Shown here: piece after piece, positions 1 through 9,758 of the stretch
How positions within the stretch are numbered: position 1 is the first letter of the stretch
Layout: the number at the start of each line of letters is the position of its first letter
Source of the DNA: a virus
Lineage: Duplodnaviria > Heunggongvirae > Uroviricota > Caudoviricetes
Length of the DNA stretch: 9,758 nucleotides
Direction: 5' to 3' (one strand)
IMG/VR virus record: IMGVR_UViG_2663762948_000006
Span: 1 to 9,758 of that record
Notes under the pieces: generated by a model
The model's database searches: none
Told to the model about the DNA's origin: nothing
Seen by the model: only the letters and a program-made list of their open reading frames with translations
Program-made: the position numbers and the translations under genes

Positions 1-219
1 TTACATCCACATAATTTGCTGCCCTGATGGCAACGGGTGCGGCCTTACGGCGTGGACTTCTCCCGGCTTCACGATGTATCGCTGTACCGACTCATAAGTG
101 ATGAACGTGGCGCTGCAATTCACGTTCTGGCACTGATGATAACGCTCTTTTGTCGTGTCAGTGATATAGCGGCTTGTACGCGCATGTGCGGCATGCTGGC
201 ATAAAGGACAATGAAACAT
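1..219 (-). CDS. ogr: Ogr late-gene transcriptional activator (zinc-finger, P2 Ogr / P4 Delta family), 72 aa
   Basis: Translation from ATG at 217-219 gives MFHCPLCQHAAHARTSRYITDTTKERYHQCQNVNC..., with the CxxC...CxxxxC zinc-finger spacing and the 72-aa length of P2 Ogr. The 93-aa ORF in the track begins at an upstream TTG (280-282) and is probably an over-extension. SD-like GGAAGAGG lies about 8 nt upstream of the ATG on the minus strand. Confidence 0.9.
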   Translation of the reverse strand: MFHCPLCQHAAHARTSRYITDTTKERYHQCQNVNCSATFITYESVQRYIVKPGEVHAVRPHPLPSGQQIMWM

Positions 220-253
220 CGCGAGCACCTCTTCCGGTTTTGTTGATGGTGCC

Positions 254-282
254 ATTTTAGTTAATTTATCCTTACAAAACAA
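254..282 (-). promoter_or_regulatory. Putative sigma70 promoter for ogr (-35 TTGTTT, 17-bp spacer, -10 TAAAAT, read on minus strand)
   Basis: By eye: reverse complement of 277-282 is TTGTTT and of 254-259 is TAAAAT, 17 bp apart, about 35 nt upstream of the ogr ATG. No experimental support. Confidence 0.3.
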
Positions 283-300
283 ACAGATAAAACAAAAACA

Positions 301-1464
301 TCACTCATCATCTTCTGTTTCGTACTCCACATCAGAAAGCCTGACCTCAAGCTCTAAGGACGTCGTGAAGCCGCTATTATTCAGAAAATGTGTCACCTTA
401 GTGATTGTCCAGTCCTGCTCGTCTATGACGCGCTTAAAGCCAGACACTTTGACCGGTGTTTCCGTGTAAATATCTGCCCGACCGGTAGCCAGGCTGATGG
501 AGAACTCCGCAACGCCCCGTTGCAGTTTATCCCACTTCGCCTGAGCGGCGCGCATGGCCTGCGCTTTCGTGGCATATACCGTGGTCAGGGCAAAAACGTT
601 GTCAGCCTCACCGGCCATGTATTCACCTTCACGCGCTTCCGGTACTTTAGGCGCTTTCTTCTGCCTGACCGGTTTCGCTTTCGGGTGCTCCAGTGCGCGC
701 AGGTGTTTCTCTTTCTTTTTGCGTTTCAGTTTTACCTTCTGCTTTTGCGGCTTCGGGTCTTTAGTGTGTAGCCATTTTGCCGTTACACCGGTGTAGGCTC
801 CACGGTCAGCAATCGCAAAATGATGGCGGTCGCCGTCGCTGCGGGTTATGGTGACCTGCGGGATTTTTTTACCGCTGGCCGTCACTCCCTGCCCCGCTTT
901 GAGAAACAACAGTTTTCCCATTTTTACCGACACCTCACCGCCGTTGCGTTCTGCAAGACGGGTCAGGAATTTCGCATCAGACTCCTGCGACTGGTCGATG
1001 TGTGGAATTTTTATTCCGGCCAGTGACGGAGCGACACTGGCTTCCAGCCTGTTACGGGTGGCTATCGCCTTAACAATCGCACCGAGCGTGGTGTCATGCC
1101 AGGAGCCTTCCCGGCGGGAATTGAGCGTCCCGCGAAAATCTGCACTCCGGGCGCGGATGGTGACTACATCCGGTGCGCCCCGGTGTTCAACCTCATCAAC
1201 GGTAAATTTCCCTTTGCATACCAGGGCAAAACCTTTCCAGCCGATATACACCGTCAGGACAGCGCCACGAACCGGCAGCCCGACCTGCCCGTCGGCATCG
1301 TTCAGTTCAATATCAAGCTGGTCAGCCTCAAAGCCCCGGTTATCCGTCAGGGTCATGCTCATCAGACGGTCGCTGATATTGCCGGTAATATCCCTGCTGT
1401 CGAGCATCAGCATGTAATCCGGCGTCAGCGTACTGCCTGCATCAAATGTCAGCGCATCCAGCAT
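301..1464 (-). CDS. D: P2-type tail protein gpD (late control gene D), 387 aa
   Basis: 387-aa ORF, the length of P2 gpD, lying directly upstream of ogr as in P2 (T-U-D-ogr). The start ATG (1462-1464) overlaps the stop of the upstream gene as TAATG on the minus strand. Contains a Lys-rich basic segment. Confidence 0.88.
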   Translation of the reverse strand: MLDALTFDAGSTLTPDYMLMLDSRDITGNISDRLMSMTLTDNRGFEADQLDIELNDADGQVGLPVRGAVLTVYIGWKGFALVCKGKFTVDEVEHRGAPDVVTIRARSADFRGTLNSRREGSWHDTTLGAIVKAIATRNRLEASVAPSLAGIKIPHIDQSQESDAKFLTRLAERNGGEVSVKMGKLLFLKAGQGVTASGKKIPQVTITRSDGDRHHFAIADRGAYTGVTAKWLHTKDPKPQKQKVKLKRKKKEKHLRALEHPKAKPVRQKKAPKVPEAREGEYMAGEADNVFALTTVYATKAQAMRAAQAKWDKLQRGVAEFSISLATGRADIYTETPVKVSGFKRVIDEQDWTITKVTHFLNNSGFTTSLELEVRLSDVEYETEDDE

Positions 1465-1943
1465 TATCCCGCCCCCGTCATACCTGTGAATCTGGTCGCC
1501 ATACTGCCGGCCTTACCGATGAGCGATTCCGCCTGTTTACCGATATCGCCATAAAGCGCGGCCAGTGATTCATCAACGCGGGTGAGTGACAGCGTAAAAT
1601 CAATTTTCCGGGGTGTGCCGTCTGCAAAGAAAATACTCCCTGTTTCACTCACCCTGCTGATGACATACATGCCGTAAATCATGCCGGTGCCATCCAGCAA
1701 CGGCCACGCCCGCCCCTCCTCTGCCATCAGCCTGAGCGTGGTCATCGTCAGCTTGCCGCCGGTCAGTTCGGGATAAAGCACACCGGCCAGCGTGATGTTT
1801 TCCTCACCCACACCGAGAAACTGAAAGGCATCCCGTTTACCGATACGGGAATTTGACGGCCAGCGATAATCTGATTCACGCTGCATGGTCTGGTGTGGCA
1901 GCGTCTGGCGCATAAAAACAAACATACCTAACGCGAGCATCAT
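1464..1943 (-). CDS. U: P2-type tail protein gpU, 159 aa
   Basis: 159-aa ORF, the length of P2 gpU, between the T remnant and D on the same strand; its stop overlaps the D start. Confidence 0.85.
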   Translation of the reverse strand: MMLALGMFVFMRQTLPHQTMQRESDYRWPSNSRIGKRDAFQFLGVGEENITLAGVLYPELTGGKLTMTTLRLMAEEGRAWPLLDGTGMIYGMYVISRVSETGSIFFADGTPRKIDFTLSLTRVDESLAALYGDIGKQAESLIGKAGSMATRFTGMTGAG

Positions 1944-1957
1944 TTTTCGTCACCTCC

Positions 1958-2743
1958 TTAACCGTCATGCATCATGCTGGCACGGGCGCGCACACGTTTA
2001 TCCCGCTCGTATTTTTCGAGCGCATCCTGTAACTGGCGGTCAAGCTGTGTCCCCGGCGCAGTCCCCCCCGTCAGGCTGATGTGATATTCGTTTTTACTCT
2101 GGTCTACATAAGAGCGGCCAGCCGGTGCCGTGACCGGCTGATAAGCCTGATAGCCTGCATAAGAGCTGGTCGCCGGAATATAGTCACCGGTACCATACGT
2201 GGCGGTATGAGTTCTGGCGGCGGTCTGGTCAAGTGTGTCTGACTCTTTGTTGATAACACCGAGTTTTTCCAGTACCCAGTCAATACCACTGCGCAGTTTG
2301 TTGAACGCATTAAGCGGCAGCATCAACGCGTCAGCCAGTGCCTGCCCGAACATGACGCCCGTGTCACGGCAACGGTTCAGGGTGTCCTGGGTGGCTTTGA
2401 CCGGGGCAATCAGGTTTTTAAACCACTGCCACGCGGCCTGTAACTTTTCGCCCAGCCAGTCAAAAACCGGTTTAAGTGGCGTGAACAGTTCCCCCACCGG
2501 CGCAAATGCCGCTTTCAGCCCTTCAACCACACCACCAAAGAATGCGCTGACAGGCTCCCAGTATTTACGGATAAGCAACGCACCGGCGACAATGGCAGCC
2601 ACCACGGCCACAACCGGCCAGCTAATCGCCCCGATGGCCGTCATAACGGCACTGCCAACCGTCGTGAAGATTGCCCCCATTGCGCCTGCTGCCGCGATGA
2701 TGGCATTGATGCCGGTGATACCCATTCTGGTCGGGTGAACTGT
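1958..2743 (-). pseudogene. T: Tape-measure protein gpT, 3'-terminal remnant (about 255-261 codons of roughly 815); 5' part deleted
   Basis: The ORF ends 14 nt upstream of U as in P2 (T then U). The translation has a long Ala/Gly/Ile-rich hydrophobic segment and a C-terminal region typical of tape-measure proteins. The frame is closed by an in-frame stop at 2744-2746, so only the C-terminal third is present. First ATG is at 2723-2725. Confidence 0.8.
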
Positions 2744-3615
2744 TCAACCGGGGACGCGCCAGCGCCGCCGAACGCGTGGAAATCGACGTCAGTCATAACG
2801 CCCTTGCCGGAGGTCTTCTCTGTGCGGACGGCCAGTGGCGGCAGATTGTCACCATTGAGGACGCACTGAAAGGCGGCTGCACGCTGTTCGACATTGAGCA
2901 GCTCAAACGCGAAAACAGCGCCGACGATTTTAAAAACCTGTTCATGTGTGAATTTGTTGACGACAAGGCGTCGGTATTCCCGTTCGAGGAGCTGCAACGC
3001 TGCATGGTCGACACGCTGGAAGAATGGGAAGACTATGCGCCGTTTGCCGCCAATCCGTTCGGCTCCCGCCCGGTATGGATTGGTTACGACCCGTCACACC
3101 GTGGCGACAGCGCCGGATGCGTGGTGCTGGCACCGCCGGTGGTGGCCGGTGGCAAATTCAGAATACTTGAGCGTCACCAGTGGAAAGGCATGGACTTTGC
3201 CACCCAGGCGGAATCCATCCGCAAACTCACCAAAAAATATAACGTCGAATACATCGGTATTGATGCCACCGGCCTCGGTGTCGGCGTGTTCCAGCTCGTG
3301 CGCTCGTTCTATCCCGCCGCGCGCGACATCCGCTACACACCGGAAATGAAAACCGCAATGGTGCTCAAGGCAAAAGACGTTATCCGCCGTGGCTGTCTGG
3401 AATATGACGTCAGCGCCACCGACATCACCAGCTCGTTTATGGCTATCCGCAAGACCATGACCAGCAGCGGACGCAGCGCCACCTATGAGGCCAGCCGCAG
3501 CGAGGAAGCCAGCCACGCCGACCTCGCCTGGGCGACCATGCACGCTCTGTTAAATGAGCCACTCACCGCCGGTATCAGCACCCCGCTGACATCCACCATT
3601 CTGGAGTTTTACTGA
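2719..3615 (+). pseudogene. P: Terminase large subunit gpP, 3'-terminal remnant (nuclease-domain half); 5' half deleted
   Basis: The frame is open only from 2719 (in-frame stop at 2716-2718) and its first start codon is GTG at 2776. The translation carries terminase nuclease-domain-like motifs (WIGYDPSHRGDSAG, EYIGIDATGLGVG). Its stop overlaps the Q start (TGATG at 3613-3617), matching the P-Q order of P2. P2 gpP is about 590 aa; only about 280-300 codons remain. Confidence 0.8.
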
Positions 3616-4649
3616 TGAGCAAGAAAAAAGGGAAAACACCGCAACCTGCGGCAAAAAAAATGACCGCCAGCGCCCCGAAAATGGAGGCATTCACCTTTGG
3701 CGAACCGGTGCCGGTACTCGACCGCCGTGACATTCTGGATTACGTCGAATGCATCAGTAACGGCAGATGGTATGAGCCACCGGTCAGCTTTACCGGTCTG
3801 GCAAAAAGCCTGCGTGCTGCCGTGCATCACAGCTCCCCGATTTACGTCAAACGTAATATTCTGGCTTCAACGTTTATCCCGCATCCGTGGCTTTCCCAGC
3901 AGGATTTCAGCCGCTTTGTGCTGGATTTTCTGGTGTTCGGTAATGCGTTTCTGGAAAAGCGTTACAGCACCACCGGTAAGGTCATCAGACTGGAAACCTC
4001 ACCGGCAAAATATACCCGCCGTGGCGTGGAGGAGGATGTTTACTGGTGGGTGCCGTCCTTCAACGAGCCGACAGCCTTCGCGCCCGGCTCCGTGTTTCAC
4101 CTGCTGGAGCCGGATATTAATCAGGAGCTGTACGGCCTGCCGGAATATCTCAGCGCCCTTAACTCTGCCTGGCTGAATGAGTCGGCCACGCTGTTCCGCC
4201 GCAAGTATTACGAAAACGGCGCTCATGCCGGATATATCATGTACGTCACCGATGCCGTGCAGGATCGCAACGATATCGAAATGCTTCGCGAAAACATGGT
4301 CAAGTCGAAAGGCCGCAACAACTTTAAAAATCTGTTTCTCTATGCCCCACAGGGGAAAGCCGACGGTATTAAAATTATCCCCCTCAGTGAAGTGGCAACG
4401 AAGGACGATTTTTTTAATATCAAAAAAGCCAGCGCCGCTGACCTGCTGGACGCACACCGCATCCCCTTTCAGTTGATGGGCGGCAAGCCGGAGAACGTCG
4501 GATCGCTGGGTGATATTGAAAAAGTGGCAAAGGTCTTTGTCCGCAATGAGCTTATCCCGCTACAGGACAGAATTCGGGAAATAAACGGCTGGCTCGGCCA
4601 GGAGGTCATCCGCTTTAAAAACTATTCACTGGAGACTGACAACGGCTGA
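3615..4649 (+). CDS. Q: Portal (capsid vertex) protein gpQ, 344 aa
   Basis: 344-aa ORF, the length of P2 gpQ, immediately next to cos as in P2. GGAG lies 8 nt upstream of the ATG. Translationally coupled to the P remnant. Confidence 0.9.
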   Translation: MSKKKGKTPQPAAKKMTASAPKMEAFTFGEPVPVLDRRDILDYVECISNGRWYEPPVSFTGLAKSLRAAVHHSSPIYVKRNILASTFIPHPWLSQQDFSRFVLDFLVFGNAFLEKRYSTTGKVIRLETSPAKYTRRGVEEDVYWWVPSFNEPTAFAPGSVFHLLEPDINQELYGLPEYLSALNSAWLNESATLFRRKYYENGAHAGYIMYVTDAVQDRNDIEMLRENMVKSKGRNNFKNLFLYAPQGKADGIKIIPLSEVATKDDFFNIKKASAADLLDAHRIPFQLMGGKPENVGSLGDIEKVAKVFVRNELIPLQDRIREINGWLGQEVIRFKNYSLETDNG

Positions 4650-4654
4650 ACATC

Positions 4655-4676
4655 GCCGCCTGCGGGCGGCTTTTTT
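4655..4676 (+). terminator. Rho-independent terminator downstream of Q
   Basis: GCCGCC (4655-4660), loop TGCG, GGCGGC (4665-4670), followed by TTTTTT (4671-4676), starting 6 nt after the Q stop codon. Confidence 0.55.
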
Positions 4677-4818
4677 ACACCCCGCCATCACGCCCTCACA
4701 CGCTCATCACCGCACAAAAAATCCCGCAGACACACCAACGCCTCAACGGGCAGACTAAGCGCCGTCACGACGCGCTCAGACGCTGAAAAAATAAAATCAG
4801 CACCACCGCCAGCGCGCA

Positions 4819-4837
4819 GTGCTTTCCCCGCCTCGCC
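4819..4837. other. P2/P4-type cos site (19-nt cohesive-end sequence)
   Basis: Plus strand 4819-4837 is gtgctttccccgcctcgcc, whose reverse complement GGCGAGGCGGGGAAAGCAC is the 19-nt P2 cohesive end as I recall it. The flanking sequence toward Q also matches my recollection of the P2 left end. Confidence 0.72.
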
Positions 4838-5000
4838 CGCCCGCTTCATGGAGCGCTTTTAATGCAGTTGCAATAACACATCAAAACATCGTCAATACAG
4901 GCGATTATAAACAATAAAAAACGATCGCTGCCGCATGCAAAATCATGCACTAAATGCATGTATTGAAGGGAAATTAGGAACGTGCTCGTTTGGGTCTAAA

Positions 5001-5897
5001 CTATGATTTCGACACAACTATTTTCCCCAAATCAAAACTAAATTCGACATCCCCATTTACGATATTTTCATTTGTCACATGCTCATCAAAAAGGTCACTA
5101 ACATCATACCCCGACTGAAACACTGGGCTCATGATAGCCACGTCGGTGAATGGCTCTTTTTCATGTGTTATATAATATTGACCATAAACATTTGCAGATT
5201 CATCTGCATCATTAAGACTAAGGACTGTTTTTGCTTTGACTTCAGGCATCAGAGAAAAATCAATATTATTCAACAAACACAGTAAGATGCCTGCTATTGC
5301 TCTCCTGTTATTATCAAGCGGCATCAAGTCCACCCCTGGAATCTCCTTCCGAAGCAATATTTTCAGCTCATTAAATAAAGAGTCGAACTTAATTGCGTCA
5401 GAACAATTGAGTAACGACAAAGCTTCATTAATCATTCGCCCTTCATTGGAACCAATTTCTGATGTTAACTTACAAACACCATCATTAACAATATACGATT
5501 TTTTGTTATTAAGCTTCTTCCTCGCTGTAATTACCTGCCCCCCCTTTAAGTTTAACTTCTCCTTTAAAAACTCATCACTGAACATTCTTAATTGCAGTCT
5601 GATTAATGTAGGTAAGTATTTCGGGTATTCATTTAACTCTGGTTTAACAGCATGCTTGTCGCGTCCAAATTTTAAACTTAATAACAAATGATTCCTCAGC
5701 ATGATATCCTTTATCTCGCCTTGATCTCTCCGATGATTATGGGCAACAAAACTCCCAATTTCAAAAATACACTTGGGCGCACTCGGCAACTCACGGGCCG
5801 TAACAAAAAGAACATCAATATCACTATCAGTGAAACTCCCATCCTTTAATCTTCTCAACACTCTCTCTATTCTTGAGATTGCTTTACTTTTATTCAT
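5001..5897 (-). CDS. Hypothetical protein, 298 aa; low-GC cargo gene in the P2 tin/old hotspot position; function unknown
   Basis: Long uninterrupted ORF with an ATG start (5895-5897) in a visibly AT-rich block that contrasts with the surrounding P2 backbone. Lys/Asn/Ile-rich composition. I see no Walker A, HNH, HExxH or other recognisable catalytic motif. It lies between cos and the replication gene, where P2 carries tin and old. Confidence 0.7.
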   Translation of the reverse strand: MNKSKAISRIERVLRRLKDGSFTDSDIDVLFVTARELPSAPKCIFEIGSFVAHNHRRDQGEIKDIMLRNHLLLSLKFGRDKHAVKPELNEYPKYLPTLIRLQLRMFSDEFLKEKLNLKGGQVITARKKLNNKKSYIVNDGVCKLTSEIGSNEGRMINEALSLLNCSDAIKFDSLFNELKILLRKEIPGVDLMPLDNNRRAIAGILLCLLNNIDFSLMPEVKAKTVLSLNDADESANVYGQYYITHEKEPFTDVAIMSPVFQSGYDVSDLFDEHVTNENIVNGDVEFSFDLGKIVVSKS

Positions 5898-6177
5898 GAC
5901 ATTCTTTCAACCTTAATCAATATTTAATTTAAACAAACCATTCTCATACGCCAACCATACCTGTGACACCTGACAAACCAAATAAAAACAAAGGTACAGC
6001 GGATATTGGTATGTACAGCTATATTACACATAAACTCATGTTAGTAACATAAGATCTTCTTGTGAATATTTGTAATTTATTAGTTCACCAACATTAATCT
6101 TTCCAACCGTTATAAATCCAATCATATGCTGATACTCAAATGACGGCCAACTACCACCTCGCGCTGTTCGTTGTTCC

Positions 6178-6220
6178 CTCCAGCAGCACTGGAAGCATGT
6201 TTCAGTACTGCTGGGGTTTT
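6178..6220. terminator. Stem-loop (about 12-14 bp stem, one mismatch) followed by a T-run on the plus strand; possible bidirectional terminator
   Basis: CCAGCAGCACTG (6180-6191) pairs with CAGTACTGCTGG (6203-6214) around an 11-nt loop, then GGTTTT (6215-6220). It sits immediately after the stop of orf67 (6224) on the minus strand, but the U-tract is on the plus-strand side. Confidence 0.3.
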
Positions 6221-6223
6221 CTA

Positions 6224-6427
6224 TCAACAACGTGGTAGCAGTGCAATTTTAGACTGTTCTATATCGTTAAACCGCACGTAATTATCCCGGACTATTTCGG
6301 CACACCCGACCAACTCGTCGGGCGTCAGATTTTCGTTGACCATAATCTGCTGTAGACGGTGAACAATAGCCATCAGCTTGATATTTTTAGTGTTATGTTG
6401 CGGTATCTCGCCTGGTATTCTGTGCAT
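6224..6427 (-). CDS. Hypothetical small protein, 67 aa (from ATG at 6425-6427)
   Basis: The ATG overlaps the TAA stop of the upstream DUF3850-like gene (TAATG on minus strand), suggesting translational coupling. No recognisable motif. The track ORF (6224..6439) starts at an upstream GTG. Confidence 0.35.
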   Translation of the reverse strand: MHRIPGEIPQHNTKNIKLMAIVHRLQQIMVNENLTPDELVGCAEIVRDNYVRFNDIEQSKIALLPRC

Positions 6428-6882
6428 TATCCAAGCCACCCGTTTTGCTTTGCACGCTCAATCTGTTCATCTGAATAGTTCCATGCTCCATCCGTGGCAA
6501 CCATTGCCCCGCCAGACATCCCCGTCTCTGGTTCATACATAACAGCAAGGCCGAGCTGATGCATAATTTCATGATTAATTCTGAATACCAGACCACGCTC
6601 ACTAAGTTCTTTCCAGTTCACAATCTCATATGCGCCTGTATTAAGCTGCTCAATACTTAGCAAGACATAATCTTCCAGCCAGTCTGACAGGTCAGTAACA
6701 TCTGTTATCCGGGCTTCAACCTTTCGCCCCGTATACACACCCTGCACCCATTCATGCAAAATCAACGTGTCCCCGCGCTCATAATTACGGTCATTTTTCC
6801 GAAACTCTGCGCGTTTCTTTCCTTCCAGCACAAGGTCGAAATATTTTGCGTGCAGCTTTACCTCGTGAATTTTTGCCATCAT
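6427..6882 (-). CDS. DUF3850/ASCH-like (PUA-fold) domain protein with a C-terminal HExxH motif, about 151 aa
   Basis: The N-terminal region (KIHEVKLHAKYFDLVLEGKKRAEFRKNDRNYERGDTLILHEW...YTGR) resembles the DUF3850/ASCH-like family as I recall it. The C-terminal part contains HEIMH (6559-6573), an HExxH zinc-binding-like motif. The likely start is the ATGATG at 6877-6882, which overlaps the TGA stop of A (6879-6881); the track ORF extends 11 codons further upstream into A. Confidence 0.65.
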   Translation of the reverse strand: MMAKIHEVKLHAKYFDLVLEGKKRAEFRKNDRNYERGDTLILHEWVQGVYTGRKVEARITDVTDLSDWLEDYVLLSIEQLNTGAYEIVNWKELSERGLVFRINHEIMHQLGLAVMYEPETGMSGGAMVATDGAWNYSDEQIERAKQNGWLG

Positions 6883-8729
6883 GTCCACTCCATTACTGTT
6901 GAGAATCCCGGCCACTCATCAGCGACCGGATACGTGAATTTTTTCCCGTCATAATTTACAGTCGCGCCACGCGCCAGCGCCTCAAGCTCCCATCGCTGCG
7001 GCCTGATACCGTTCTGAGCAAGGTCAACGCGGATACGGGTGATTTGCATTCGTTCCGACCGGGTCAGTCTGGCAGATGGTGCAATTTCATGCGGTTTTAA
7101 CGGGCTTCCGTTTCTTTGCTGACGGTTTGGCGTTCTCATGTCGTATTTTAATGCGCCCCTGAGCGCCCTCACGACCTCCGGTTCATTCCATTCAATAACA
7201 CCGTCATCAACCAGATTAAGCACTGCTGCGGCGTGCTCAGAAGGTGTGGGAGCCGGTAACGAAGTATCACCACCGGTGAGCTTTCCACAGTTATTGACAG
7301 GACTCCGAGGCGCGGCGATGCCGCTTTTTAAAGTCAAAGGCTCAACGACCGGAACTTTCGGCACAATGCGCCAGTCCGTCGTTCTGGTGATATGAATATG
7401 ACGCGCGCCGAGATGCGGCGCGTAAATGCCGACCACTCTCTCGACTTCTTCCTCGTACTCGTTAACGTCATCCGACGGGCTACGGGCAACCCTGACAGTC
7501 TGACAATCGCGCGGGACATTTGCCCCACCCTGCGCGCTGATATACAACGCAAAATCACCACTGTCTGCGGCAGCGCGAGCAGCCTCGACGCGTTCGTCAA
7601 ACTCATCAGCAATACTGACGCCGCGAGGCAATTTGCGTAGTTCACGGTAAGCCCCCATTGTCGGCAGTCCAACCGTTTTAAATTGCGGGATGCGCCACGT
7701 TGACGCCCATGCGGTAACAGCCGCGGCAGTATCTTTAAGCGGCTTACCGGTATCGTTATCGAGCTGACCATCCAGTGCATAGCCGTCGATATTTTTTGAA
7801 ATGTATTTCGCGATATATCCCGCAGCACCGCCCCGGTTAAGGTGCTTTGCCTGAAAACGGTTTCGCGCGGCTCCTCTTTCGTCACCATCCTCTTTGAGCG
7901 CATAGCGACGCATGATTTCGATAATCTGGTTACGCTGGCGTGGATTACAAAAAAGCATCATATGCCAGTGCGGCGTTCCGTCGTGGTGTGGCTCGACGAC
8001 ACGCAAACCGTAGACCTGTAAATCATTATCCTTGAATGCCGTGCGCATCAGGCTCCAGATGCGGCAGAGATAACGCTGCGCATCCTTTGGATTAAATGCC
8101 TCATCGTTCCAGCCGTGATTAAGCTGAACGGTTTTACTTTCGCCTTTTCTGACCTGACGAGTCGGGTGATACTTTGACGGCGCGGTCAGCGTGATAAACA
8201 TCCCCACATCACCCTCTGCGGCGGCGTAACGCTCAATACCGGCAATGGTGTTCATCAGCTCCATCCGGCGAATTTCAGGATTAGAAATACTGCCCATCAC
8301 CTTACTGATAAGGTCGATGCGCTCGCCGGTTTCCCTGTTTTCAAGGTCACACGATTTAAGAAATTCCAGATTTGCCTGGCGGCGCGCACGCACATCACGA
8401 ATGGCGTGTTTACTGGCATACATCATGAAAAGCTGCGATGAGATACGGGCGGCAAACTTTTTCAGCTCCTTGTCATTCATTCCCGGCAGGCGCGCATAGT
8501 GGTCACGCTCTGCCAGAAACAGCAACGACGCGTCGGTGTTCATTTCATGGCGCTGATTCACACGCTCAATGCGCGGCCATAAACGACGCTGAAAAGTGGA
8601 TGTGAGAAAATAAAACCCGTGCACCGGGCTTTTATTACGCCGGATGTAGTCATAGCGTGAAGTAAACAGCGAGCGCAAAAAGTAAGGCAGGCGATTTATC
8701 GTGGATAACTCTATATAAAAATTACATTT
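6879..8729 (-). pseudogene. A: Rolling-circle replication initiator gpA, 5'-truncated (about 600-616 C-terminal codons of 761 retained)
   Basis: The translation contains the paired-tyrosine motif GYIAKYISK (Y288 and Y292 of the track ORF). P2 gpA is 761 aa with active-site tyrosines that I recall as Y450 and Y454; the offset of 162 plus 599 equals 761, so the C-terminus aligns exactly. The frame is closed by a stop at 8730-8732, the first start in frame is TTG (8676-8678) with no SD, and no B, cox or C genes lie upstream. Confidence 0.8.
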
Positions 8730-8755
8730 TCACCATTTGCCACCAAGATGGTGAA
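8729..8755. promoter_or_regulatory. Nested inverted repeat immediately upstream of int (possible operator or protein-binding site)
   Basis: TTCACCA (8729-8735) and TGGTGAA (8749-8755) are 7-bp inverted arms 13 bp apart; nested inside is CACCA-AGA-TGGTG (8741-8753). It lies 23 nt upstream of the int ATG within the A'/int junction region. Function is inferred only. Confidence 0.25.
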
Positions 8756-8777
8756 TACAGCGCCGGAGGGCTTTCTT

Positions 8778-9758
8778 ATGGCAATTAAGAAGCTCGATGA
8801 TGGTCGCTATGAAGTGGACATTAGACCTCGCGGTCGCGACGGAAAACGCATCCGCAGGAAATTTGAAAGAAAAGCTGAAGCACTAGCATTTGAGCGATAC
8901 ACAATCGCCAATGCCAGTCAGAAAGAATGGGGAGGCCAGCGAGCAGACCGCCGAACTTTGACAGAATTGCTCGACATCTGGTGGAAATACCACGGGCAAA
9001 ACCACGAGCATGGGACAAAAGAGTTTAATCATCTGCTCAAAACCATCAGCGGCATAGGTGATATACCAGTGAGTCGGATGAACAAAAGGGCTTTGATGGA
9101 TTATCGCTCCATGCGACTACGTGATGGCATCAGTGCTGCAACGATAAACCGCGACATGTACCGATTATCCGGCATGTTCACAAAATTAATTCAATTGGAT
9201 GAATTTTCCGGGCAACACCCAATTCACGGACTGCCGCCACTGACGGAGGCTAACCCTGAAATGACGTTCCTGGAAAAAGCAGAAATCGAAAAACTGCTAA
9301 ATGTTTTGACTGGTGATGACTTACTTGTCGCGCTTTTATGTCTGAGCACTGGAGGAAGGTGGACGGAAGTTGCCACGCTAAAACCAGCACAGATTACAAG
9401 TTGCAGGGTTACCTTCCTGAAAACCAAAAACGGTAAAAAGCGAACAGTGCCGATTTCTGAGGAACTGGAGAAAAAAGTTAAAGAGGAGGCCAGCGCCAAA
9501 TTGTTCAAGGTAGATTATGAGAAGTTTTGCGGGATTTTACGCAGAGTGAAACCTGATATACCTCCCAATCAGGCAACCCACATTCTGCGGCATACATTCG
9601 CAAGCCATTTCATGATGAATGGGGGCAACATAATTGCACTGCAACAGATTCTGGGGCATGCGAGCATTCAGCAGACAATGACCTATGCGCACCTTGCGCC
9701 TGACTACCTGCAGAACGCCGTCGCTCTGAATCCACTAAAAGGCGGAGTGACGTTATAA
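8778..9758 (+). CDS. int: Tyrosine recombinase, P2-type integrase (326 aa from ATG 8778; alternative start ATG 8748 gives 336 aa)
   Basis: N-terminus MAIKKLDDGRYEVDIRP... matches my recollection of P2-family Int. The C-terminal catalytic region carries the tyrosine-recombinase signature (HILRHTFASHFMMNGG...LGHASIQQTMTYAHL). GGAGGG lies 8 nt upstream of ATG 8778; the upstream ATG at 8748 has no SD. Confidence 0.9.
   Translation: MAIKKLDDGRYEVDIRPRGRDGKRIRRKFERKAEALAFERYTIANASQKEWGGQRADRRTLTELLDIWWKYHGQNHEHGTKEFNHLLKTISGIGDIPVSRMNKRALMDYRSMRLRDGISAATINRDMYRLSGMFTKLIQLDEFSGQHPIHGLPPLTEANPEMTFLEKAEIEKLLNVLTGDDLLVALLCLSTGGRWTEVATLKPAQITSCRVTFLKTKNGKKRTVPISEELEKKVKEEASAKLFKVDYEKFCGILRRVKPDIPPNQATHILRHTFASHFMMNGGNIIALQQILGHASIQQTMTYAHLAPDYLQNAVALNPLKGGVTL

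Follow-up and report, generated by a model that had tools for sequence, protein, structure and literature searches.

Intact orf91 in a decayed P2 prophage: a conserved DUF3850-DUF7415 protein whose HExxH string is not a protease site

Introduction

Directly after the replication gene A' in a decayed P2 prophage lies a small gene whose product ends in a segment bearing the string HEIMH, and the locus raises the question of whether this gene encodes a minimal zinc metallopeptidase, is a recent acquisition, or belongs to the established gene set of the P2 family. An earlier note, made from the sequence alone, had described an ASCH-like N-terminal domain followed by a peptidase-like motif and had suggested a conserved accessory gene. 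The analysis reported here covers the stretch of 9,758 nucleotides in which the gene lies (hereafter the window), and places its product among phage records, bacterial genomes, domain families, and structural models. The features on which the argument depends are collected in Table 1.

Table 1. Coordinates of the gene, its signals, its domains, and its neighbors in the window.
Feature	Position	Strand	Basis
CDS of the 151-aa protein (stop codon 6427-6429 counted)	6427..6882	-	ORF list and sequence; full-length P2 orf91 orthologue
ATGA overlap of the gene's start (6882-6880) with the TGA stop of A (6881-6879)	6879..6882	-	sequence
GGAG Shine-Dalgarno, lying within the 3' end of A	6888..6891	-	read from sequence
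DUF3850/ASCH domain (PUA-like beta-barrel), residues 5-77	6652..6870	-	Pfam
DUF7415 domain, residues 87-137	6472..6624	-	Pfam PF24187, column conservation, AF2
HEIMH, residues 104-108	6559..6573	-	sequence CATGAAATTATGCAT
A', defective replication initiator gene A, directly upstream in the operon	6879..8678	-	P2 A match; Pfam Phage_GPA 3.1e-89
orf67 (67 aa), downstream gene, TAATG overlap	6224..6427	-	PHROG 11386, 4.2e-39
298-aa ORF, 36.9% GC	5001-5897	-	PHROG 29586 full length, 4.8e-210
Comparison with reference P2 AF063097 (locus positions 3501-3830)	6427-6882		DNA alignment

A gene preserved in a dead prophage

The window (1-9758) is a multiply deleted P2 prophage remnant with junctions near 2725-2776 and 8680-8747. 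Its genes are, in order, ogr, D, U, the last 255 codons of T, the last 279 codons of terminase P, the portal gene Q, the 298-aa ORF, orf67, the gene under study, A', and int. The remaining part of the tape-measure gene T abuts that of terminase P, and cox, C, B, orf80-83, and the early promoter Pe are missing. A' itself corresponds to residues 64-150 and 249-761 of P2 A, the rolling-circle initiator, at 99% identity, having lost its first ~63 codons by 5' truncation and residues 151-248 in frame, and int starts about 70 bp from it. Other E. coli strains have, between fieF and cpxP, a related remnant that has lost less. Since the deletions have removed Pe, cox, B, and the 5' end of A, the gene is probably not normally expressed here, and it is probably best regarded as an intact but silent passenger in a dead prophage. 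Promoter-like sites were no more frequent in a promoter and terminator scan than in shuffled sequence, and neither the Rfam nor the tRNA scan of the window found anything.

The reading frame is tightly embedded between its neighbors. On the minus strand, the first ATG (6882-6880) and the TAA stop (6429-6427) delimit 151 amino acids, while a second ATG at 6879-6877, the A of which is also the last base of the TGA stop of gene A, would give 150. The stop of A (6881-6879) can be read within ATGA in GGAGTGGACATGATGG. The GGAG block stands 5 nt from the first ATG and 8 nt from the second and is conserved in P2, Wphi, and OU784549. Given that OU784549 has ATA in place of the first ATG, only the second is universal, and it is the second that is favored by RefSeq annotation, by PHROG 1812, and by more distant homologues. 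At the other end, the stop of the gene overlaps the ATG of the 67-codon orf67 as TAATG. The overlapping operon of A', this gene, and orf67 that had been proposed is thus what the sequence contains at both junctions.

Orthology with P2 orf91 and constancy beside variable cargo

That the ORF is not a chance one follows from its end-to-end match to PHROG 1812 (150 residues) over 2-150 of 150 at an E value of 3.9e-82. In a tblastn survey of 50,697 phage records, full-length copies were found in 25, all of them P2-like (Peduovirus-type) and 86-98% identical, and in 25 of 25 the annotated feature adjoining the match was replication gene A; in each of the three loci inspected (reference P2, Wphi, and OU784549) the gene starts at or within the stop of A. 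Bacterial genomes tell the same story: the gene and orf67 occur together in 345 of 5,426 complete E. coli genomes at no less than 80% query coverage, the block being annotated there as 'replication endonuclease | DUF3850 domain-containing protein | hypothetical protein'. Strain 730V1 has a layout identical to that of the window, the 298-aa ORF included. The exact 150- and 151-residue sequences are present on 42-45 contigs each in public databases, again as 'DUF3850 domain-containing protein'. Homologues downstream of A in other P2-like phages, which the earlier note had proposed to look for, are therefore plentiful, and its suggestion of a conserved P2-family accessory gene holds.

P2 orf91 (AAD03307.1) also lies directly after A with an overlapping start and is 97% identical over residues 1-75. 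In the DNA alignment with reference P2, homology then ends after codon ~75 (...DYVLL) and gives way to sequence leading into tin and old. Reference P2 lacks the DUF7415 half and orf67, with tin/old cargo in their place, and the gene studied here is intact. By this alignment, orf91 of reference P2 is a truncated relic of the tin/old insertion. OU784549, a resequenced P2 isolate, and Wphi carry the full gene and orf67, followed by a cytosine methylase. The Wphi record divides the gene into gp91 and gp92 because of several 1-bp indels relative to other phages; its 1-bp insertions (AY135739, locus positions 3501-4016) may be sequencing errors or real frameshifts. Among the E. coli prophage copies in databases, some (5 proteins) read out of frame in or after the DUF7415 half, e.g. 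ETGCLAGQWLPRMEHGTIQ; such copies suggest that the C-terminal domain has repeatedly decayed by frameshift in prophages.

What follows orf67 varies: a methylase in Wphi and OU784549, the 298-aa ORF in the window, and, in P2, tin/old. Given that the gene and orf67 are conserved after A while this cargo changes, the gene counts as conserved backbone, at the edge of the gpA-gpQ locus nearest to A; in P2-like phages that locus is known as a hotspot of anti-phage systems (Rousset et al., PMC9122126). The idea that the gene is itself recent cargo was considered and is ruled out by its constancy beside changing neighbors. Base composition calls for one qualification. The GC content of the gene (46.3%) is close to that of int (47.4%) and intermediate between A' (53.3%) and the adjacent cargo (36.9%), so the backbone-like composition claimed for it is to be taken less strictly. 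In P2-like phages and prophages alike, orf67 goes with the full-length gene, and its exact sequence is present on about 999 contigs. Beyond a low-GC spacer (5898-6223), the 298-aa ORF occupies the gpA-gpQ locus; it had no Pfam, NCBIfam, or PADLOC match, and E. coli 730V1 likewise carries it after the DUF3850 gene and orf67. This uncharacterised ORF is a candidate defence gene.

Two domains and their predicted structure

Membership of a Pfam family was taken as a score above the curated gathering cutoff. By that measure the N-terminal half belongs to DUF3850 (PF12961; 6.7e-18, 65.1 bits against a cutoff of 22.9, model positions 1-77 of 77) and, over the same region, to ASCH (PF04266; 2.4e-11, 44.7 bits against 21.2), so that the assignment to a DUF3850/ASCH PUA-like fold, first made from the sequence alone, was correct. 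The motif GxKxxExR, which defines the ASCH cavity (PMC6803910), is present in the translation as G21-K22-K23-R24-A25-E26-F27-R28, and R28 is nearly invariant among two-domain homologues. The domain as a whole is slightly acidic, with a net charge of -2. A sequence search also matched it to the residues of PDB 3iuw at 4e-13.

The C-terminal half belongs to an uncharacterised Pfam family. DUF7415 (PF24187) matches residues 87-129 at 1.9e-14, with 54 bits against a cutoff of 27, and the residues invariant in the family (G97, L98, I102, N103, E105, H108, G111, L112, A113, G121, S123, D131, W134, and Y136) are all present; the single exception among such positions is P109, which is Gln in this protein. 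A search of NCBIfam gave no matches.

An AlphaFold2 (AF2) model built from a 124-sequence alignment has a mean pLDDT of 90; an earlier run on a 14-sequence alignment, in which the C-terminal half fell below a pLDDT of 50, was discarded. Residues 5-79 are modeled as a beta-barrel with a helix, followed by a linker (80-89). The DUF7415 part is modeled at pLDDT 91-97 as helices 90-95 and 98-110 and a hairpin (112-117/122-128), with a conserved DGxWxY turn in addition, and a clade-specific C-terminal helix spans residues 138-146. At a pTM of 0.53, the model does not fix how the two domains are oriented relative to each other.

The HExxH string

The peptidase reading holds that the C-terminal segment is a minimal zinc metallopeptidase, with H104 and H108 binding zinc, E105 as the base, and a downstream acidic residue as third ligand. 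Its appeal is evident from the local sequence. As the earlier note had seen, HEIMH is followed by Gly and acidic residues: Q-L-G comes next and E117 and E119 come after, G111 falls in the HExxHxxG register, the string lies in the predicted helix 98-110 with both His residues on the same face, and HEIxH is kept in two-domain homologues of ~50% identity.

The wider family speaks otherwise. A phmmer search of residues 78-151 against 1.84 billion cluster representatives gave 195 matches at E<=1e-3, and columns were counted over the 146 representatives beyond close E. coli relatives. Position 108 is His in 141 of 146 and position 105 is Glu in 121 of 145, whereas position 104, His here, is Arg in 56, Lys in 23, Thr in 18, His in 14, and Asn in 12 (n=144); Arg and Lys together, at 79, far outnumber His. 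On these counts E105 and H108 are conserved in the family and H104 is specific to a lineage. The family signature reads W-N-x-[LM]-S-x-x-G-L-[ILV]-x-R-I-N-x-E-I-L-H-P-L-G-L-A ... T-G-x-S-x-G-A-[LI]-V-[AS]-x-D-G-x-W-x-Y and leaves out the His that opens HExxH; the complete string is kept in the enterobacterial P2-type clade only. That 55% of the family have a cationic residue at position 104 speaks against an ancestral metal site in which this position took part. Position 114, which would be the third His of metzincins, is Val, leaving no third ligand in the metzincin register, and E117 and E119 sit in the beta-hairpin and are variable across the family.

Searches for a peptidase relationship point the same way. 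The protein matched no peptidase family in Pfam at E<=1, and the DUF7415 profile, run against PDB sequences, matched nothing but a de novo design at E 1.8, which is spurious. A fold search with the whole two-domain model returned no peptidase fold; its matches were dominated by the ASCH domain because the complete model was used as query. Conservation of HExxH among homologues, named beforehand as a deciding observation, does not extend to the first His, and the peptidase suggestion is accordingly not supported: the segment is DUF7415, and the motif is a lineage-specific coincidence, not a protease site. Taken with the phage and genome comparisons, the protein is almost certainly an orthologue of orf91, composed of DUF3850 and DUF7415, and not a zincin. 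The gene is an already catalogued, uncharacterised phage gene, here in the intact ancestral form of P2 orf91.

DUF7415 as a phage module

Of the 146 representatives, 143 match PF24187. Stand-alone proteins of 110 aa or less account for 59, and the remainder carry the domain N-terminally, C-terminally, or in mid-protein. Its combination with DUF3850 is rare (2 of 146 cluster representatives); other fusion partners are a dATP/dGTP pyrophosphohydrolase (PF04447, 3 clusters), a thymidylate kinase, and an Rv2179c-like 3'-5' exonuclease. The domain is acidic, with a median net charge of -4 and a median pI of 4.6, and 96% of copies lie below pI 6 (143 domains). It occurs in about 900 of the 50,697 phage records, T4-, T5-, and P2-like phages among them, and was found in phage and prophage contexts only.

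Gene neighborhoods add to this picture. In the T4-like Klebsiella phage JD18 (Jiaodavirus), a 72-aa DUF7415 gene lies between nrdD and nrdG and overlaps both (locus positions 2992-3210); in KP27 the gene is near a Nudix gene, and in Aeh1 it directly follows rnlA, close to denA, nrdA.1, and td. The T5-like phage TrudiRoth has two adjacent genes (bas30_0049 and 0050), each with two DUF7415 repeats, just upstream of primase (locus positions 2389-3222), and in the Aeromonas P2-like phage phiO18P, orf15 is a separate 81-aa DUF7415 gene two genes after rep. The DUF7415 genes of these five phages are all in early replication or nucleotide-metabolism regions. The neighborhoods of two metagenomic representatives held only small unannotated phage genes. 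Judged by distribution, fusion partners, and surroundings, DUF7415 appears to be a widespread phage module repeatedly associated with nucleotide-handling functions, and its tandem repeats in T5-like phages hint at self-association. A literature search returned no paper mentioning DUF7415. Mentions of DUF3850 were passing ones, apart from a study of prophage proteins in which DUF3850, described as PUA-like, is fused to ParB-CTPase domains (the ParB-DUF3850 fusion study).

Possible functions

The reading tentatively preferred is that of an early replication-operon accessory protein, in which an ASCH domain binds nucleic acid and DUF7415 serves as an adaptor. In a live P2-like phage, the early Pe operon would supply both the protein and gpA. 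By analogy with other ASCH domains and with YTH and EVE proteins, the basic GxKxxExR cavity of the barrel would accommodate single-stranded nucleic acid or a nucleotide, perhaps a modified one, and DUF7415, probably self-associating, would dock its partner domain onto the machinery of replication or nucleotide supply. The adaptor role is proposed because of the charge of DUF7415, its fusion partners, its neighborhoods, and its tandem repeats. Several points temper it. Because small ORFs abound in the early regions of T4- and T5-like phages, neighborhoods there are weak evidence; the polar residues N103, E105, H108, S123, and D131 could instead form a catalytic or metal site; a net charge of -2 is atypical of a strong nucleic-acid binder; and the AF2 model has no confident packing between the domains.

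Such an accessory protein need not be indispensable. Because reference P2 has lost both the DUF7415 half and orf67, its orf91 being a relic truncated by tin/old, these two are dispensable for growth of P2 in the laboratory, and the best reading is that the gene is at least partly dispensable. Against this, a 2025 preprint terms P2 orf91 'an essential protein' in an aside in its methods, without data (PMC12407873), while a comparative-genomics paper gives its function as unknown (PMC3091744). The literature searched held no apparent test of essentiality for the DUF3850 half that remains in P2.

An enzymatic function is the first alternative. Here the ASCH barrel would be a small hydrolase, either a nuclease or a nucleoside/nucleotide amidohydrolase of the ZmASCH/YqfB kind, and DUF7415 a nucleotide-linked regulatory or co-catalytic module acting through the same five polar residues. 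Identity to YqfB is just 11-14%, however, and the closest structure, 3iuw, is without known activity. Of the conserved positions in DUF7415, the majority are Gly, Pro, Asn, Ser, or Asp at helix ends and turns, fitting a structural role in so small a fold, and the stand-alone representatives are too small for most enzymes. This possibility is unlikely, though not negligible.

A further alternative sees the protein as a host-takeover or counter-defence factor, or as a defence gene of the gpA-gpQ hotspot, with DUF7415 blocking a host protein and the ASCH domain recognising a modified base or a signalling nucleotide. The gene does stand at the A-proximal edge of that hotspot (PMC9122126), its product is small, acidic, and presumably expressed early, like many anti-defence proteins, PUA-superfamily domains serve as modified-base sensors in defence systems (PMC7641849), and anti-defence roles were likewise suspected in the study of ParB-DUF3850 fusions. 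Yet the gene is constant beside variable cargo, and the tin/old insertion destroyed rather than exchanged it. Being co-oriented with and overlapping the lytic-cycle gene A, it is expected, in contrast to defence cargo, to stay silent in lysogens, and a PADLOC search gave nothing significant (best match 12.7 bits, E 0.023). Taken together these points leave a defence-related role quite unlikely.

The polar residues of DUF7415 admit one more interpretation, in which the domain is a miniature functional site and not a passive adaptor, N103, E105, H108, S123, and D131 binding a metal or nucleotide, possibly across a dimer. This is improbable. A module found on ASCH, on a dNTP pyrophosphohydrolase, on thymidylate kinase, and on an exonuclease, and between nrdD and nrdG, would then sense or control the nucleotide pool in replication, and the extra His104 of the P2 clade would modify that site. 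As for a zinc peptidase, with its first His unconserved in the family, it is exceedingly improbable.

Implications

The consequences are mainly those of bookkeeping, and current understanding is not overturned. The appropriate annotation is full-length orf91 orthologue (DUF3850 and DUF7415), not putative metalloprotease. The gpA-gpQ defence hotspot has its true left boundary after orf67, not directly after A, and in P2 this boundary lies inside the orf91 gene. DUF7415 is a reasonable but modest target for work on phage replication accessory factors.

Comparison with known systems

The closest known counterparts are the full-length orthologues of the Yersinia phages vB_YpM_50 and L-413C and of the P2 isolate OU784549, which are 91-98% identical. 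Wphi matches at 86%, with its gene split into gp91 and gp92 where the gene studied here is unsplit. For the N-terminal domain alone, PDB 3iuw is an Enterococcus faecalis 'activating signal cointegrator' of the DUF3850 family, a structural-genomics target; it is a single domain of 80 residues without DUF7415, unlike the two-domain protein described here. More remote are members of the ASCH/PUA-like superfamily such as YqfB (the E. coli ac4C amidohydrolase), ZmASCH (a Zymomonas ribonuclease), human TRIP4/EOLA1, and the YTH and EVE readers of modified bases; these share just 6-21% identity with the protein, and none has DUF7415.

With the zincins, both the metzincins (HExxHxxGxxH) and the gluzincins (HExxH...E), the protein shares the literal string HExxHxxG on a helix. 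Unlike them, it has a first His that its family does not conserve, no third ligand in register, a non-zincin fold, and no match by profile or structure. Its real kinship on the C-terminal side is with the DUF7415 proteins of JD18, KP27, Aeh1, TrudiRoth, and phiO18P, which share the same domain of ~50 residues at 35-52% identity, with the signature GL..RIN.EILHPLGLA...TG.S.GA.V..DG.W.Y. Those proteins have Arg, Lys, Thr, or Asn at the position of His104 and Pro at that of Gln109, and they carry no ASCH domain.
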